Shown: positions 1,723 through 38,669 of the stretch, piece by piece | Layout of the letters: each line of letters starts with the position of its first letter | How positions within the stretch are numbered: position 1 is the stretch's first letter | Assembly: GCF_013122565.1 (NCBI RefSeq) | Contig: NZ_CP053258.1 | Strand: one strand, 5' to 3' | From: Escherichia coli | GTDB lineage: Bacteria; Pseudomonadota; Gammaproteobacteria; Enterobacterales; Enterobacteriaceae | Length of the DNA stretch: 64,000 nt | Notes under the pieces: generated by a model | The model's input: only the letters and a program-made list of their open reading frames with translations | Database searches by the model: none | What the model was told of the DNA's origin: nothing | Translations under genes and position numbers: made by a program

Positions 1723-4479
1723 TTACCCGAGAATTTTGCTGGCTTCGCGCGCGACATTATCCATCTCGTCCAACAGTTCCAGCAGCTCCGGCTCCAAATC
1801 TTCTTCTTTAGTACCGCTACGTAGCTGTTGTTCGATCAGTTGGCAGAGATTCTTCATACGCGGCACACCGCTATAGCCGCAACTGCCATGCAGTTTATGA
1901 ATCAAATCAACCAGGCCTTCCGGGTTTTCTCCAACCAGCTGTTCCTCAACTTTGTTGCGAACTTCAGGCAGGAAATCGAGTAACATTTGCAGCATATCGC
2001 GCGCTAAATCGGTTTTTCCTGCTGCCTGGCGTAGTGCCAGTTGCCAGTCGAGGGTCGCATTCGGGTTCACCACAATTTCGTTGACTTCGGGCGTCACGAC
2101 GCGAGAGGAAATACCGCTGCCAGGCTTGTAGCGCAACAACAAATTATGCAATCGCTCTTCTTCAATCGGTTTCGCCAGATAATCGCTCATCCCTGCGCCA
2201 AGCAGCTTCTCTTTTTGCCCGGCCATTGCATGCGCCGTTACCGCGATAACCGGCGTTTGTTGCTGATGGGGGAGCTGGTGGATGAGCTCGCAGGCCCGAA
2301 TGCCATCCATGTCCGGCATTTGAATATCCATTAAGATCAAATCGAACGGCATCTGTTTCGCCCGTTCAACCGCCTGATGCCCGCTATCGCAAAGTTCCAC
2401 ATGTTGCACCATATCTTCCAGCAATGCGCCGATAAGTTTCAGGTTAGCGGGGTTGTCATCAACCGCCATGACTGTCATTGCCAGCTTACTTTCATCGGTT
2501 ACAGGCAAAAGCGTGTTTTGTTTGTGATGACAAAATTCCGTCAGGGCAGGCAACAGGCGCGTAGGTGTTAATGGTTTCAGCAGACACGCGCCGATACCAT
2601 CTTGCTTAAGTTTTTCAGCATTGACTTGTGCATGGCAAGGAAGTGCCAGCATCAGGAAATCGGTCATCGATACCGCTTTCGCTAATCGCTCATGTTGCAT
2701 TGTTAGCGGCTCGCGGAAGGTCACCGCGATGCCTAACAACATCATGTCGTAATGCGCGGGAGGCAGCGCGGAGAACGTTGGGCTATAAACCACTTCCAGC
2801 GGCGTTTCACTTAAAATATCCAGCGTGCATTGCGCTGCTGCGGAGTTTGGTTCGACATAGGCCAGGCGCTTACCTGCGAGGCACTGGGTGGATGGCCCTT
2901 CGATAATAATGTTCGGGTTCAGATCGAGATTAATGTGGAACCAGAAAGTTGAACCGCGATTTGGCTGGCTATGGAACGAAATATCGCCGCCCATTTCATT
3001 AACCAGTTTTTGTGTAATCACCAGCCCCAGCCCGGTGCCACCATGACGGCGGGAAATACTGGCATCAGCCTGTCGGAAGGCCTGGAATAAGCGCGATTGA
3101 TCGCGTTCAGGAATACCAATGCCGGTATCCCGAATCTGCACTTCAATCTGCACTTTGGTATTACTCAGCGCACGTTTTTCTACCAGAATATCAATGTTGC
3201 CATTCTCGGTGAATTTAATTGCATTCCCCACCAGGTTAGTGATGATTTGCTGTAATCGCAGTGGGTCGCCGATCACGTTATCAGGCACGTCGCTTTTAAT
3301 ATTGAGCGTCAGTTCCAACCCTTTATCGTGAGAAGAATGTGCCAGCAGAGTAACGACTTCATCCAGCGTGCTGCGTAGTGGGAATGGAATACTTTCCAGA
3401 ATCAGCTTACCTGCTTCCAGTTTCGAGAAGTCGAGAACATCATTAATAATTGCCAGCAAATTATTTGCTGAACGTTCAATCGTATTCAGGTGATCGCGCT
3501 GCGTTGGTGTTAATTCTGTTTTCAGTGTCAGGCGGGTAAAGCCAATAACACCATTCAGTGGTGTACGCAGCTCGTGTGACATATTTGCCAGAAACTCGGA
3601 TTTAATACGCGCCGCTTCCTGGGCGCGCTTTTTCGCCAGATCCAACTCAACGTTCTGAATTTCCATCTGCTCCAGCGTTTCACGCAGATCGGACGTCGCC
3701 TGGTCGATATTGTGCTGCATCTCTTCGTGATAAGCAGCCAGCGACATTGCCATCGAGTTGATACCGTTTTTCAGCATATCCAGCTCGCCGAGCATAAATC
3801 CTTCCACCCGGCTGTCGAGTTGCCCGCGACGGATGCGGTCGACGGTATTCACCATGTTGCGAATCGGACCGGTTACATCGCGCATTAAGCGCCAGCCAAA
3901 AATAAGCGCAATACCGATACAAAACAGCATCATCACGCTGGAAATAAAGATCTCTTTATATTGCTGCAAGCGAACCGATTTAAGATCCAGCTCAAGCGCA
4001 ATATATCCCAACATATTTTGACTATTTTTGGCATCGCTACTGGGCGATTCGTCGGGGGAATAACTCTCAGAAATAATCGGCGTGCGGAGGATCATAATAT
4101 CGCCGTCACGAGTGACAGTGAGCTGGCGAGGAAACGGCACGTTGCTGCCGAGCTGCATTGATGAGGGATCAAGATGAAAATTGGAGGTGACAAAGAGTCG
4201 GTTATTTTCATCATAAACCGAAATCGCGCGAACAATATCAGAATGGCGACGATGCAGTACGCTTATTAACTGACCGATAGATTCGCGATTTTGCAGGCTC
4301 ATGCCATATTCAGTAGAAACTGCAAGCGGCTCAATAATGCTGGCACCGGCATCTTCCAGTTGACGCTGCAAGTCGTTATAGCGATGCACGACGAAAAAGA
4401 TACTCAGCAATAAACCAATAAGGACGGTCGGTGCCAGGATCAGAATCATCATGCGTGCGCGCAGGCTGTAGTTGGTCAT
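1723..4479 (-). CDS. barA: Hybrid sensor histidine kinase BarA
   Basis: 918 aa ORF with TM N-terminus, HAMP, HisKA (SHELRTPLN), HATPase, receiver and HPt domains. Confidence 0.95.
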
Positions 4480-9218: not shown

Positions 9219-10871
<1,653 letters not shown>

Positions 10872-10890
10872 GTAAAAAAGTTAGAACGGC

Positions 10891-10919
10891 AACGCGTACC
10901 CTGGGTACGCGTTGTTTGT
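10891..10919 (+). terminator. Hairpin (terminator/attenuator-like) between pyrG and eno
   Basis: aacgcgtaccc/gggtacgcgtt inverted repeat followed by a T-rich run. Confidence 0.45.
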
Positions 10920-34734: not shown

Positions 34735-35727
34735 ATGAGTCAGAATACGCTGAAAGTTCATGATTTAAATGAAGATGCGGAATTTGATGAGAACGGAGTT
34801 GAGGTTTTTGACGAAAAGGCCTTAGTAGAAGAGGAACCCAGTGATAACGATTTGGCCGAAGAGGAACTGTTATCGCAGGGAGCCACACAGCGTGTGTTGG
34901 ACGCGACTCAGCTTTACCTTGGTGAGATTGGTTATTCACCACTGTTAACGGCCGAAGAAGAAGTTTATTTTGCGCGTCGCGCACTGCGTGGAGATGTTGC
35001 CTCTCGCCGCCGGATGATCGAGAGTAACTTGCGTCTGGTGGTAAAAATTGCCCGCCGTTATGGCAATCGTGGTCTGGCGTTGCTGGACCTTATCGAAGAG
35101 GGCAACCTGGGGCTGATCCGCGCGGTAGAGAAGTTTGACCCGGAACGTGGTTTCCGCTTCTCAACATACGCAACCTGGTGGATTCGCCAGACGATCGAAC
35201 GGGCGATTATGAACCAAACCCGTACTATTCGTTTGCCGATTCACATCGTAAAGGAGCTGAACGTTTACCTGCGAACCGCACGCGAGTTGTCCCATAAACT
35301 GGACCACGAACCAAGTGCGGAAGAGATCGCAGAGCAACTGGATAAGCCAGTTGATGACGTCAGTCGTATGCTTCGTCTTAACGAGCGCATTACCTCGGTA
35401 GACACCCCGCTGGGTGGTGATTCCGAAAAAGCGTTGCTGGACATCCTGGCCGATGAAAAAGAGAACGGTCCGGAAGATACCACGCAAGATGACGATATGA
35501 AGCAGAGCATCGTCAAATGGCTGTTCGAGCTGAACGCCAAACAGCGTGAAGTACTGGCACGTCGATTCGGTTTGCTGGGGTACGAAGCGGCAACACTGGA
35601 AGATGTAGGTCGTGAAATTGGCCTCACCCGTGAACGTGTTCGCCAGATTCAGGTTGAAGGCCTGCGCCGTTTGCGCGAAATCCTGCAAACGCAGGGGCTG
35701 AATATCGAAGCGCTGTTCCGCGAATAA
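34735..35727 (+). CDS. rpoS: RNA polymerase sigma factor RpoS (sigma-38)
   Basis: ORF track 34699..35727; start [14 protein letters not shown] gives 330 aa; codon 33 is GAG (Glu) and the frame is intact. Confidence 0.96.
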
Positions 35728-35743
35728 GTAAGCATCTGTCAGA

Positions 35744-35780
35744 AAGGCCAGTCTCAAGCGAGGCTGGCCTTTTTTCTTTT
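35744..35780 (+). terminator. rpoS rho-independent terminator
   Basis: aaaggccag-tctcaagcgagg-ctggccttttttctttt. Confidence 0.7.
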
Positions 35781-35847
35781 GTTTGGGAAGCATGTGTTTT
35801 TGTCGCCTGGATAAGACACGTCAGCGTCCTACCCGGCAATCAGCATT

Positions 35848-36255
35848 CTATGTGTTCATCATCTTGCGCACCAACTGCATAAACAGCTCCTGCTCTTCTG
35901 CACTCAAACGCCCCAAAAATTCCTCATCCACGCTGTCACCAATGGGGATCGCCGCAGCAAGTACCTTTTCTCCTTCGGCAGTCAGCCAGACAAAGCGTCG
36001 CCGCTTGTCAGCGGCGTCATGTTCACGTCTGACTAAGCCACGATTTTCCATTCTTGCCAACATTTCTGCCAGCGTTGCTTTGGTGCTGACTGCTGCTTCT
36101 ATCAGTGCCACCTGTTCGATACCAGGCTTATCAGCAATGGCGCGCATCACCGCGTACTGTGGTTTGGTCAGGTCAGGTAACTCGTGCTGCCAGCGAGCCG
36201 TGTGCTGCTGAAAAAGCTGTCGTAACTGATGGAACGCTTTATTTCGTAACGCCAT
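35848..36255 (-). CDS. MarR/SlyA-family transcriptional regulator
   Basis: 135 aa; winged-helix MarR-like sequence; divergent from the decarboxylase genes. Confidence 0.8.
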   Translation of the reverse strand: MALRNKAFHQLRQLFQQHTARWQHELPDLTKPQYAVMRAIADKPGIEQVALIEAAVSTKATLAEMLARMENRGLVRREHDAADKRRRFVWLTAEGEKVLAAAIPIGDSVDEEFLGRLSAEEQELFMQLVRKMMNT

Positions 36256-36370
36256 GTAAACTCCGGGCTAATTCTCTGCCGCTATCATAGCGGTTTTTCA
36301 GTGACGAAGAAGATGTTGTTACTTTTCAGCGCTTGCCGCGATGAAAACAGAGGCGTATTTTAATAATAAC

Positions 36371-36384
36371 GTTCGTATACGAAC
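36371..36384. promoter_or_regulatory. Candidate operator: perfect 14-bp palindrome GTTCGTATACGAAC
   Basis: Perfect inverted repeat about 18 bp upstream of the UbiX-like start, in the divergent intergenic region with the MarR-family gene. Confidence 0.4.
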
Positions 36385-36401
36385 AATTTAGAGAGTAAGC
36401 A

Positions 36402-36995
36402 ATGAAACTGATCGTCGGGATGACAGGGGCCACCGGAGCGCCTCTTGGTGTGGCATTACTGCAAGCACTGCGGGAGATGCCGAATGTCGAGACTCATCTG
36501 GTGATGTCGAAGTGGGCGAAAACCACCATTGAACTGGAAACGCCTTACAGCGCCCGCGATGTTGCTGCCCTCGCTGACTTCAGCCATAACCCGGCGGATC
36601 AGGCGGCGACCATCTCCTCAGGTTCCTTTCGTACCGACGGCATGATCGTTATTCCGTGCAGTATGAAAACGCTCGCAGGTATCCGTGCCGGTTACGCCGA
36701 TGGCCTGGTAGGGCGCGCGGCGGACGTCGTGCTCAAAGAAGGCCGCAAACTGGTGCTGGTGCCGCGTGAAATGCCGCTTAGCACCATCCATCTCGAAAAT
36801 ATGCTCGCACTTTCACGCATGGGCGTGGCGATGGTGCCGCCGATGCCTGCCTTTTATAACCATCCCGAAACGGTAGATGACATTGTCCACCATGTGGTAG
36901 CCCGCGTGTTGGATCAATTTGGCCTCGAACATCCCCACGCCAGGCGCTGGCAAGGATTGCCGCAGGCCCTGAATTTTTCTCAGGAGAATGAATAA
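36402..36995 (+). CDS. UbiX/Pad1-family flavin prenyltransferase (decarboxylase B subunit)
   Basis: 197 aa; MKLIVGMTGATGA... flavoprotein fold of the UbiX family. Confidence 0.85.
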   Translation: MKLIVGMTGATGAPLGVALLQALREMPNVETHLVMSKWAKTTIELETPYSARDVAALADFSHNPADQAATISSGSFRTDGMIVIPCSMKTLAGIRAGYADGLVGRAADVVLKEGRKLVLVPREMPLSTIHLENMLALSRMGVAMVPPMPAFYNHPETVDDIVHHVVARVLDQFGLEHPHARRWQGLPQALNFSQENE

Positions 36996-38422
36996 TGGCA
37001 TTTGATGATTTACGCAGCTTTTTACTGGCGCTTGATGACCACGGCCAGTTACTGAAAATCAGCGAAGAGGTGAACGCGGAACCGGATCTGGCAGCAGCAG
37101 CTAACGCCACCGGGCGTATCGGCGATGGCGCGCCCGCGCTGTGGTTTGATAATATTCGCGGTTTTACCGATGCGCGCGTGGCGATGAATACCATCGGTTC
37201 CTGGCAGAACCACGCGATTTCCCTCGGCCTGCCGCCAAACACGCCGGTCAAAAAGCAGATTGATGAGTTTATCCGCCGCTGGGATAACTTCCCGATCGCC
37301 CCGGAGCGCCGCGCCAATCCAGCCTGGGCGCAGAACACCGTCGATGGCGACGAGATTAACCTGTTCGATATTCTGCCGCTGTTTCGTTTAAACGACGGTG
37401 ATGGCGGTTTCTATCTCGATAAAGCGTGCGTGGTTTCCCGCGACCCGCTCGATCCGGATAACTTCGGCAAGCAGAACGTCGGTATCTACCGCATGGAAGT
37501 GAAGGGCAAACGTAAGCTCGGCCTGCAACCGGTGCCGATGCACGATATCGCCCTGCATCTGCATAAAGCGGAAGAGCGCGGTGAAGATCTGCCGATTGCG
37601 ATCACCCTCGGTAACGATCCGATCATCACCCTGATGGGCGCCACCCCGCTGAAATACGATCAGTCTGAGTACGAAATGGCGGGCGCACTGCGCGAAAGCC
37701 CGTACCCGATCGCTACCGCGCCATTGACCGGTTTTGACGTGCCGTGGGGTTCTGAAGTGATCCTCGAAGGCGTTATCGAAAGCCGCAAACGTGAAATCGA
37801 AGGGCCATTCGGTGAGTTTACCGGCCACTACTCCGGCGGGCGTAACATGACCGTGGTGCGCATCGATAAAGTCTCTTACCGCACCAGGCCGATTTTCGAA
37901 TCGCTGTACCTCGGCATGCCGTGGACCGAAATCGACTACCTGATGGGGCCTGCCACCTGCGTGCCGCTTTACCAGCAACTGAAAGCCGAGTTCCCGGAAG
38001 TGCAGGCGGTAAACGCCATGTACACCCACGGCCTGCTGGCGATTATCTCCACCAAAAAACGCTACGGCGGCTTTGCCCGCGCGGTGGGGCTGCGAGCAAT
38101 GACAACGCCGCATGGTTTGGGCTACGTGAAGATGGTGATTATGGTCGATGAAGACGTTGATCCGTTCAACCTGCCACAGGTGATGTGGGCGCTCTCCTCG
38201 AAAGTGAACCCGGCGGGCGACCTGGTGCAGTTGCCGAATATGTCCGTGCTGGAACTCGACCCAGGTTCAAGCCCGGCGGGGATCACCGACAAGCTGATTA
38301 TCGACGCCACCACGCCTGTTGCCCCGGACAACCGTGGTCACTACAGCCAGCCGGTGGTGGATTTACCGGAAACCAAAGCCTGGGCTGAAAAACTGACCGC
38401 TATGCTGGCCGCACGTAAATAA
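36995..38422 (+). CDS. UbiD-family (prenyl-FMN-dependent) aromatic acid decarboxylase, C subunit
   Basis: 475 aa; translationally coupled to the UbiX-like gene (ATAATGG overlap). Confidence 0.85.
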   Translation: MAFDDLRSFLLALDDHGQLLKISEEVNAEPDLAAAANATGRIGDGAPALWFDNIRGFTDARVAMNTIGSWQNHAISLGLPPNTPVKKQIDEFIRRWDNFPIAPERRANPAWAQNTVDGDEINLFDILPLFRLNDGDGGFYLDKACVVSRDPLDPDNFGKQNVGIYRMEVKGKRKLGLQPVPMHDIALHLHKAEERGEDLPIAITLGNDPIITLMGATPLKYDQSEYEMAGALRESPYPIATAPLTGFDVPWGSEVILEGVIESRKREIEGPFGEFTGHYSGGRNMTVVRIDKVSYRTRPIFESLYLGMPWTEIDYLMGPATCVPLYQQLKAEFPEVQAVNAMYTHGLLAIISTKKRYGGFARAVGLRAMTTPHGLGYVKMVIMVDEDVDPFNLPQVMWALSSKVNPAGDLVQLPNMSVLELDPGSSPAGITDKLIIDATTPVAPDNRGHYSQPVVDLPETKAWAEKLTAMLAARK

Positions 38423-38432
38423 GGAGAACAAG

Positions 38433-38669
38433 ATGATTTGTCCACGTTGTGCCGATGAACAGATTGAAGTGATGGCGAAATCGCCGGTGAAAGATGTCTG
38501 GACGGTCTACCAGTGCCAGCATTGCCTTTATACCTGGCGCGATACCGAACCGCTACGCCGCACCAGTCGCGAACATTACCCGGAAGCGTTTCGCATGACG
38601 CAGAAAGATATTGATGATGCGCCAATGGTGCCGAGCATCCCGCCGCTGCTGGCGGCAGATAAGCGTTAA
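38433..38669 (+). CDS. Small zinc-ribbon decarboxylase subunit (D subunit)
   Basis: 78 aa with two CxxC pairs (CPRC ... CQHC); third gene of a B-C-D decarboxylase operon. Confidence 0.75.
   Translation: MICPRCADEQIEVMAKSPVKDVWTVYQCQHCLYTWRDTEPLRRTSREHYPEAFRMTQKDIDDAPMVPSIPPLLAADKR

Follow-up and report, generated by a model that had tools for sequence, protein, structure and literature searches.

The perfect palindrome GTTCGTATACGAAC at positions 36371-36384 is the known operator of the MarR-family repressor HosA, because its sequence is identical to the published binding site of this protein (PMC6261655) and because the regulator encoded at the other end of the same intergenic region is 100% identical to HosA. 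A switch in which HosA on this operator (O1) controls the decarboxylase operon vdcBCD and is released by 4-hydroxybenzoate, and in which a second palindrome of the region (palindrome 2) is not a HosA site, is in our judgement a highly probable explanation for the region as a whole. The window, by which we mean the entire 64-kb stretch of DNA that was analysed, contains the following features in and around this intergenic region:

35848-36255, minus strand: hosA, encoding a MarR-family repressor of 135 amino acids (open reading frame and MarR-family matches)
36261-36264, minus strand: ribosome-binding site of hosA, GGAG (CTCC columns with 85-95% conservation across 74 orthologous regions)
36279-36293, no strand assigned: palindrome 2, CCGCTAT-C-ATAGCGG, with a conserved core at 36282-36291 that includes the putative -10 box of a proximal hosA promoter, TATGAT (36289-36284, minus strand)
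36294-36298, plus strand: run of five T after palindrome 2, terminator-like in a simple terminator scan and adjacent to the palindrome only in Escherichia
36333-36338, plus strand: predicted -35 box of the decarboxylase operon promoter, TTGCCG (TTG 100% conserved in 74 regions)
36356-36361, plus strand: predicted -10 box of the decarboxylase operon promoter, TATTTT (T36356, A36357 and T36361 100% conserved)
36357-36386, minus strand: candidate distal hosA promoter, TTGTTC (36386-36381), 18 nt, TAAAAT (36362-36357), with 8/12 matches
36371-36384, no strand assigned: HosA operator O1, GTTCGTATACGAAC, identical to the published HosA binding site and conserved in orthologous loci
36391-36395, plus strand: ribosome-binding site of the first operon gene, GAGAG (consensus TGAGG; sequence and alignment)
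36402-36995, plus strand: vdcB/ecdB, subunit B, a UbiX-family flavin prenyltransferase (NCBIfam VdcB, 312 bits, cutoff 290)
36995-38422, plus strand: vdcC/ecdC, subunit C, a UbiD-family decarboxylase (NCBIfam VdcC, 788 bits, cutoff 650)
38433-38669, plus strand: vdcD/ecdD, small subunit D (NCBIfam VdcD, 121 bits, cutoff 30)

From the 146-bp region, which is their common control region, hosA and the operon for a non-oxidative hydroxyarylic acid (4-hydroxybenzoate) decarboxylase, vdcBCD/ecdBCD, diverge. Over all 135 residues, the regulator is 100% identical to PDB entry 8aga, 'Transcriptional regulator HosA', and to six further PDB entries, and its orthologs carry the name HosA in their source records. 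The assignment of vdcB/ecdB also matches the RefSeq annotation of the orthologous locus. The gene order pcm, nlpD, rpoS (plus strand), hosA (minus strand), vdcB, vdcC, vdcD (plus strand), pphB and mutS (both minus strand) is that of the Escherichia mutS-rpoS region, and the identical order is annotated by RefSeq in E. coli O55:H7. Open reading frames, NCBIfam matches and RefSeq gene order thereby agree with the preliminary description, in which a MarR-family regulator was placed divergently to a UbiX-like/UbiD-like decarboxylase operon.

Among 5426 complete E. coli genomes, 2403 contain the hosA-vdcBCD locus, which is chromosomal every time. In none of the 5426 genomes does the identity to the 3-kb segment 35700-38700 with hosA and vdcBCD exceed 96.2%, and for hosA plus the intergenic region alone the identity to E2348/69 is 99.1%. 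From these comparisons, hosA-vdcBCD looks like a mosaic locus, which suits the mutS-rpoS region with its known polymorphism. The rpoS gene of E. coli E2348/69 (NC_011601.1) is annotated by RefSeq as a frameshifted pseudogene; the rpoS open reading frame of the window is intact. A strong intrinsic terminator is located 3' of rpoS at 35741-35774 (15-bp stem and T-run, -25.9 kcal/mol, z -4.2) and is common to the convergent rpoS and hosA genes. Weak, sub-threshold Rfam matches to ctRNA_p42d and Thr_leader at this terminator are probably plain hairpin matches, and the Rfam search of 35600-36600 yielded no family in the hosA-vdcB intergenic region.

Both palindromes of the preliminary description are present in the DNA. 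The first, reported there as a perfect 14-bp palindrome about 18 bp upstream of the UbiX-like start codon, is the perfect 7+7 palindrome O1, which is separated by 17 nt from the ATG at 36402 of a UbiX-like open reading frame of 197 amino acids. The second, reported as a near-palindrome followed by TTTTT next to the regulator start, is palindrome 2, in which two 7-nt arms flank one central base; the TTTTT follows directly at 36294-36298, and 23 nt separate the palindrome from the regulator ATG (36255, minus strand). Palindromy by itself is within chance expectation for either of them: the 64-kb window contains 4 perfect 7+7 palindromes, compared to 3.4 +/- 2.0 in shuffled sequences, and 7 palindromes with 7-nt arms and a one-base centre, compared to 4.2 +/- 2.0. 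The occurrence of both palindromes within one 146-bp intergenic region has a probability of approximately 3e-4, according to a rough Poisson estimate from the palindrome rate of the window. Counting on both DNA strands inflated the number of near-copies of palindrome 2 (5 observed, 1.5 expected), since the pattern is palindromic; the apparent excess corresponds to 3 distinct sites. The longest perfect palindrome of the window is CAACGCGTACCC-T-GGGTACGCGTTG at 10890-10914 with 12-nt arms, and two more palindromes with 8-nt arms are located at 3454-3470 and 10406-10422.

The palindromic '14-bp TFBS of HosA' was bound by HosA in EMSA and biolayer interferometry, and 4-HBA caused its release (PMC6261655). 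The oligonucleotides listed in Table S1 of that study have the top strand CAGAGGCGTATTTTAATAATAAC-GTTCGTATACGAAC-AATTAAGAGAATAAACA, of which the part CAGAGGCGTATTTTAATAATAAC-GTTCGTATACGAAC, meaning the 14-mer and its 23-nt upstream flank, equals positions 36348-36384 of the window base for base. In the machine-read version of this table, some rows contain 'GTTTCG', a spelling that cannot hold for the two strands at the same time; GTTCGTATACGAAC is given exactly by oligonucleotide T_H and by the nicked pairs R7-1/R7-2 and R8-1/R8-2, which settles these rows. The published binding and release were observed with the HosA allele of strain UMN026 on identical DNA (PMC6261655), and the allele of the window is the crystallised one from E2348/69. 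According to Roy & Ranjan (2016, Biochemistry 55:1120), as summarised in a preprint (bioRxiv 10.1101/2024.04.24.590444), the non-oxidative hydroxyarylic acid decarboxylase operon is repressed by HosA from a palindromic site downstream of the transcription start, and 4-hydroxybenzoate frees HosA, by which the operon is induced. In the account of the same preprint, 4-hydroxybenzoate binds at the hinge of the HosA dimer, and autorepression by HosA is mentioned second-hand. The proposal that the first palindrome serves as operator of the neighbouring regulator was correct: it is the published 14-bp HosA site next to a regulator that is 100% identical to HosA.

The locus of the window and the hosA/HAD (ecdBCD/vdcBCD) locus of E. 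coli UMN026 share the 14-bp operator, its 23-bp upstream flank, its position before the first operon gene, the regulator HosA and the location between rpoS and pphB/mutS. A few substitutions distinguish the stretch between operator and start codon, which reads AATTTAGAGAGTAAGCA in the window and AATTAAGAGAATAAACA in UMN026-type strains. There is no difference in kind between the two systems. PcaV of Streptomyces coelicolor represses an operon for the catabolism of aromatic acids, and a ligand of the hydroxybenzoate type releases this repressor. This protocatechuate-responsive MarR-family protein is the closest solved relative besides HosA itself (PDB 4fht/4g9y, E 1.8e-16), but the two proteins are distinct and not orthologous, their operator sequences differ, and the operon controlled by PcaV serves protocatechuate degradation.

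The conservation of O1 was analysed in an ortholog scan with one genome per species, which covered 80 loci with HosA relatives of 60-99% identity from genera including Escherichia, Citrobacter, Salmonella, Klebsiella, Enterobacter, Kluyvera, Kosakonia, Leclercia, Lelliottia, Phytobacter, Pseudocitrobacter, Atlantibacter and Rahnella. The divergent arrangement of hosA and vdcB is kept in 74 of the 80 loci, and all 74 of them, from about 25 genera, contain O1 in the form GTTCG-TRYR-CGAAC, at a distance of 15-21 nt from the vdcB ATG (35-36 nt in Rahnella). In the alignment of these 74 sequences, the ten outer positions of O1 are 99.6% conserved and the central four 84%, compared to 65% in the rest of the region. 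The centres TATA, TACA, TATG, TGTA, CATA and TGTG differ by transitions only. The pattern GTTCGN4CGAAC occurs in 75 copies in the regions upstream of hosA and as a single copy in the 64-kb window, and 0 copies were found in the other approximately 490 kb of the orthologous loci outside the hosA-upstream regions. The preliminary description had named frequent genome-wide occurrence as a generic repeat as an outcome that would speak against the operator; within the approximately 490 kb of orthologous loci and the 64-kb window, the absence of copies beyond the hosA intergenic regions speaks against such a repeat. That O1 is a chance palindrome or a generic repeat devoid of a specific function can be practically dismissed. 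The frequency of perfect 14-bp palindromes in the window, which is at the shuffle expectation, and the ordinary folding z-score of O1 would fit such an origin, but the identity with the experimentally used HosA binding site, the near-invariance across about 25 genera within a variable surrounding region, and the lack of the motif elsewhere in the 493 kb of loci and the 64-kb window argue against it. A chance origin is therefore rejected on the basis of conservation and exclusivity, not of palindromy.

A simple terminator scan also reported O1 as a terminator on the minus strand, which was ruled out by its folding energy (-4.9 kcal/mol, z -1.7); the palindromic nature of the operator alone makes the match recur in orthologs. 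In loci of Superficieibacter, Cedecea and Pluralibacter (L060, L053, L067 and L072), the operator is kept and the divergent gene is directly vdcC with no adjacent vdcB (coordinates 1366-2793 and 2780-3010 in L060). The VdcC protein of Superficieibacter is 97% identical to that of the window, and its HosA only about 72%, so that VdcC may be either unusually constrained or recently exchanged.

The standard promoter scan found no promoter in the hosA-vdcB intergenic region of the window. From a relaxed scan combined with conservation, we infer a promoter of the decarboxylase operon with the hexamers TTGCCG and TATTTT, a 17-nt spacer and a predicted transcription start near position 36368; it scored 8/12 in the relaxed scan. 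O1 would occupy approximately positions +3 to +16 relative to this start, within the initiation footprint of RNA polymerase. The predicted start near 36368 thereby places O1 in agreement with the published location of the site downstream of the transcription start. In the proposed mechanism, a HosA homodimer would bind GTTCGTATACGAAC with one winged-helix domain on each half-site (GTTCG and CGAAC) and, being positioned just downstream of a sigma-70 promoter, would block RNA polymerase at initiation or escape. Binding of 4-hydroxybenzoate, the substrate of the encoded enzyme, to HosA would then release the repressor from the DNA and derepress the operon, so that prenyl-FMN synthase, decarboxylase and the small subunit could be produced. 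The predicted -10 box TATTTT of the operon (plus strand) and the candidate -10 box TAAAAT on the hosA strand overlap with an offset of 1 nt at 36356-36362. The 100% conservation of A36357 and T36361 could reflect a function in either or both of the divergent promoters.

With regard to palindrome 2, we favour, with moderate confidence, the reading that TATGAT, found in its core on the hosA strand, is the -10 hexamer of a proximal promoter of hosA, and that its extension to a 7+1+7 palindrome as well as the T-run are Escherichia-specific features with unconserved pairing. In the 74-sequence alignment, the core CTAT[C/G]ATAGC is conserved at 0.73-0.99 with a central base that is split between C and G, and the outer arms are conserved at 0.43-0.64. 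Of 77 regions, 67 have a TATGAT or TATCAT hexamer 27-32 nt upstream of the hosA ATG, and conservation of its T, A and T on the hosA strand amounts to 0.93-0.99. For Rahnella, inspection by eye shows the non-palindromic TAAGAT or TAAAAT at the corresponding place on the hosA strand. Within Escherichia, one-sided changes of the left arm are found, namely tCGC in E. coli O104:H4, PE164 and E. whittamii and CCGA in Escherichia sp. E1V33, and the right arm is fixed in all of these. For Enterobacter cloacae and Citrobacter portucalensis, the only promoter that the standard scan reported upstream of hosA was TTAAAA-17-TATCAT/TATGAT with 9/12 matches. TTAAAA is found at 17 nt from TATSAT in 33 orthologs, and at least 9/12 matches to this promoter are reached in 37 of 70 orthologs. 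In the window and in all Escherichia, the best -35 partner of TATGAT has 2/6 matches. As the Escherichia region is also about 25 bp shorter, hosA may have only a weak or an inactive proximal promoter in this genus.

The preliminary description had regarded palindrome 2 as a candidate operator of the MarR-family regulator. We consider it quite improbable that palindrome 2 is a second HosA operator by which HosA represses its own gene, even though MarR-family regulators are commonly autoregulated, autorepression has been reported second-hand for HosA, and the element is palindromic, lies close to the hosA start codon (23 nt) and has a conserved core. Palindrome 2 (CCGCTATCATAGCGG) does not have any half-site in common with O1, its half-site CCGCTAT being unlike GTTCGTA, and a search for HosA sites with up to 3-4 mismatches found O1 as the sole match in the intergenic region of the window. 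The second HosA-like sites that do occur in other genera resemble O1 (G[AG][TC]CGTRYRCGAAC) and are located 56-57 bp upstream of it, and the genera with such a site still retain the CTATSATAGC core. Moreover, the outer arms of palindrome 2 are not conserved and the box of Rahnella is not palindromic at all. This part of the earlier proposal is not supported: the element lacks likeness to a HosA site, and its core behaves like a hosA -10 box.

Even less probable, in our estimation, is a function of palindrome 2 and the five T residues as an intrinsic terminator that insulates the decarboxylase operon from plus-strand read-through, or as a hairpin in the hosA leader. The simple terminator scan matched a 7-bp stem with 4 G-C pairs, a 3-nt loop and the T-run, and the folding energy is below that of shuffled sequences (z -2.6). 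However, the hairpin reaches only -9.5 kcal/mol, compared to -25.9 kcal/mol for the rpoS terminator 500 bp upstream, and no plus-strand gene ends before palindrome 2, as the minus-strand hosA intervenes and rpoS has its own terminator. The changes in the Escherichia arms are one-sided and uncompensated, indicating that pairing is not conserved, and outside Escherichia a 4-bp A/T stem is all that is left, with the T-run no longer adjacent. Palindrome 2 also has no Rfam match. Less improbable than these readings, yet still unlikely, is that the core GCTATSATAG is the site of another transcription factor that controls hosA and overlaps or replaces the -10 box. The conservation extends slightly beyond the hexamer (C-n-G-C upstream and A-G downstream on the hosA strand), hexamer positions 3 and 5 are conserved at 0.99, which is above the usual level in -10 boxes, and the core forms a 4+1+4 palindrome in most genera. 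In contrast, no candidate factor or known motif was found for the core. Its constant spacing from the ATG and the presence of TTAAAA at 17 nt suit an ordinary promoter, and only position 4 of the hexamer varies freely, which is the pattern expected of a -10 box.

Besides the proximal promoter at palindrome 2, hosA could be transcribed from the candidate distal promoter with the hexamers TTGTTC and TAAAAT, the -35 box of which overlaps O1. As source of the hosA transcript, the distal and the proximal promoter are equally compatible with the sequence. The distal promoter, hypothetical as it is, would better fit the reported autorepression of HosA, because its -35 box lies inside O1.

A second HosA-like site (O2), typically GATCGTGTACGAAC, is present in 38 of 77 orthologous control regions (L007, L011, L015, L020, L021, L023-L025, L028, L029, L031, L035, L038-L052, L054-L059, L063-L066 and L068), which belong to Klebsiella, Enterobacter, Kluyvera, Pseudocitrobacter, Leclercia, Lelliottia, Phytobacter and other genera. 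O2 precedes O1 by 56-57 bp, and 3 bp separate its end from the -35 box of the operon promoter. Among the 77 regions, O2 was not found in Escherichia, the Citrobacter freundii group, Salmonella or Kosakonia, nor was it found at 36256-36401 of the window. Control regions of the Klebsiella/Enterobacter/Kluyvera type share with the window O1, the promoter of the operon and the TATSAT box before hosA, but differ by the presence of O2 and of a good TTAAAA -35 box for the proximal hosA promoter. The control region of Escherichia is about 25 bp shorter and lacks both O2 and the TTAAAA box. It is conceivable, though we regard it as doubtful, that Escherichia has a stripped-down control region which lost approximately 25 bp with O2 and the proximal -35 box. 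In such a case, hosA would be transcribed mainly from the distal promoter, a single HosA dimer would repress both genes, and the Escherichia-specific enlargement of TATGAT to a 15-bp palindrome with its T-run would come to lie in the hosA leader, where it might have gained a regulatory role of its own.

The operator O1, HosA, the effector 4-hydroxybenzoate and the target operon are already known and were characterised in 2016, and the HosA site is already in use as a part of in-vitro biosensors (PMC6261655, PMC6694116). The discovery value of the present analysis is accordingly small, and a real operator had been correctly recognised from the sequence alone. Our analysis adds the conservation of O1 in about 25 genera and the flanking promoter elements, which we infer by phylogenetic footprinting. 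It further indicates that palindrome 2 is better explained as the -10 box of hosA than as an operator, and that a two-operator version of this control region exists in many genera, but not in Escherichia.
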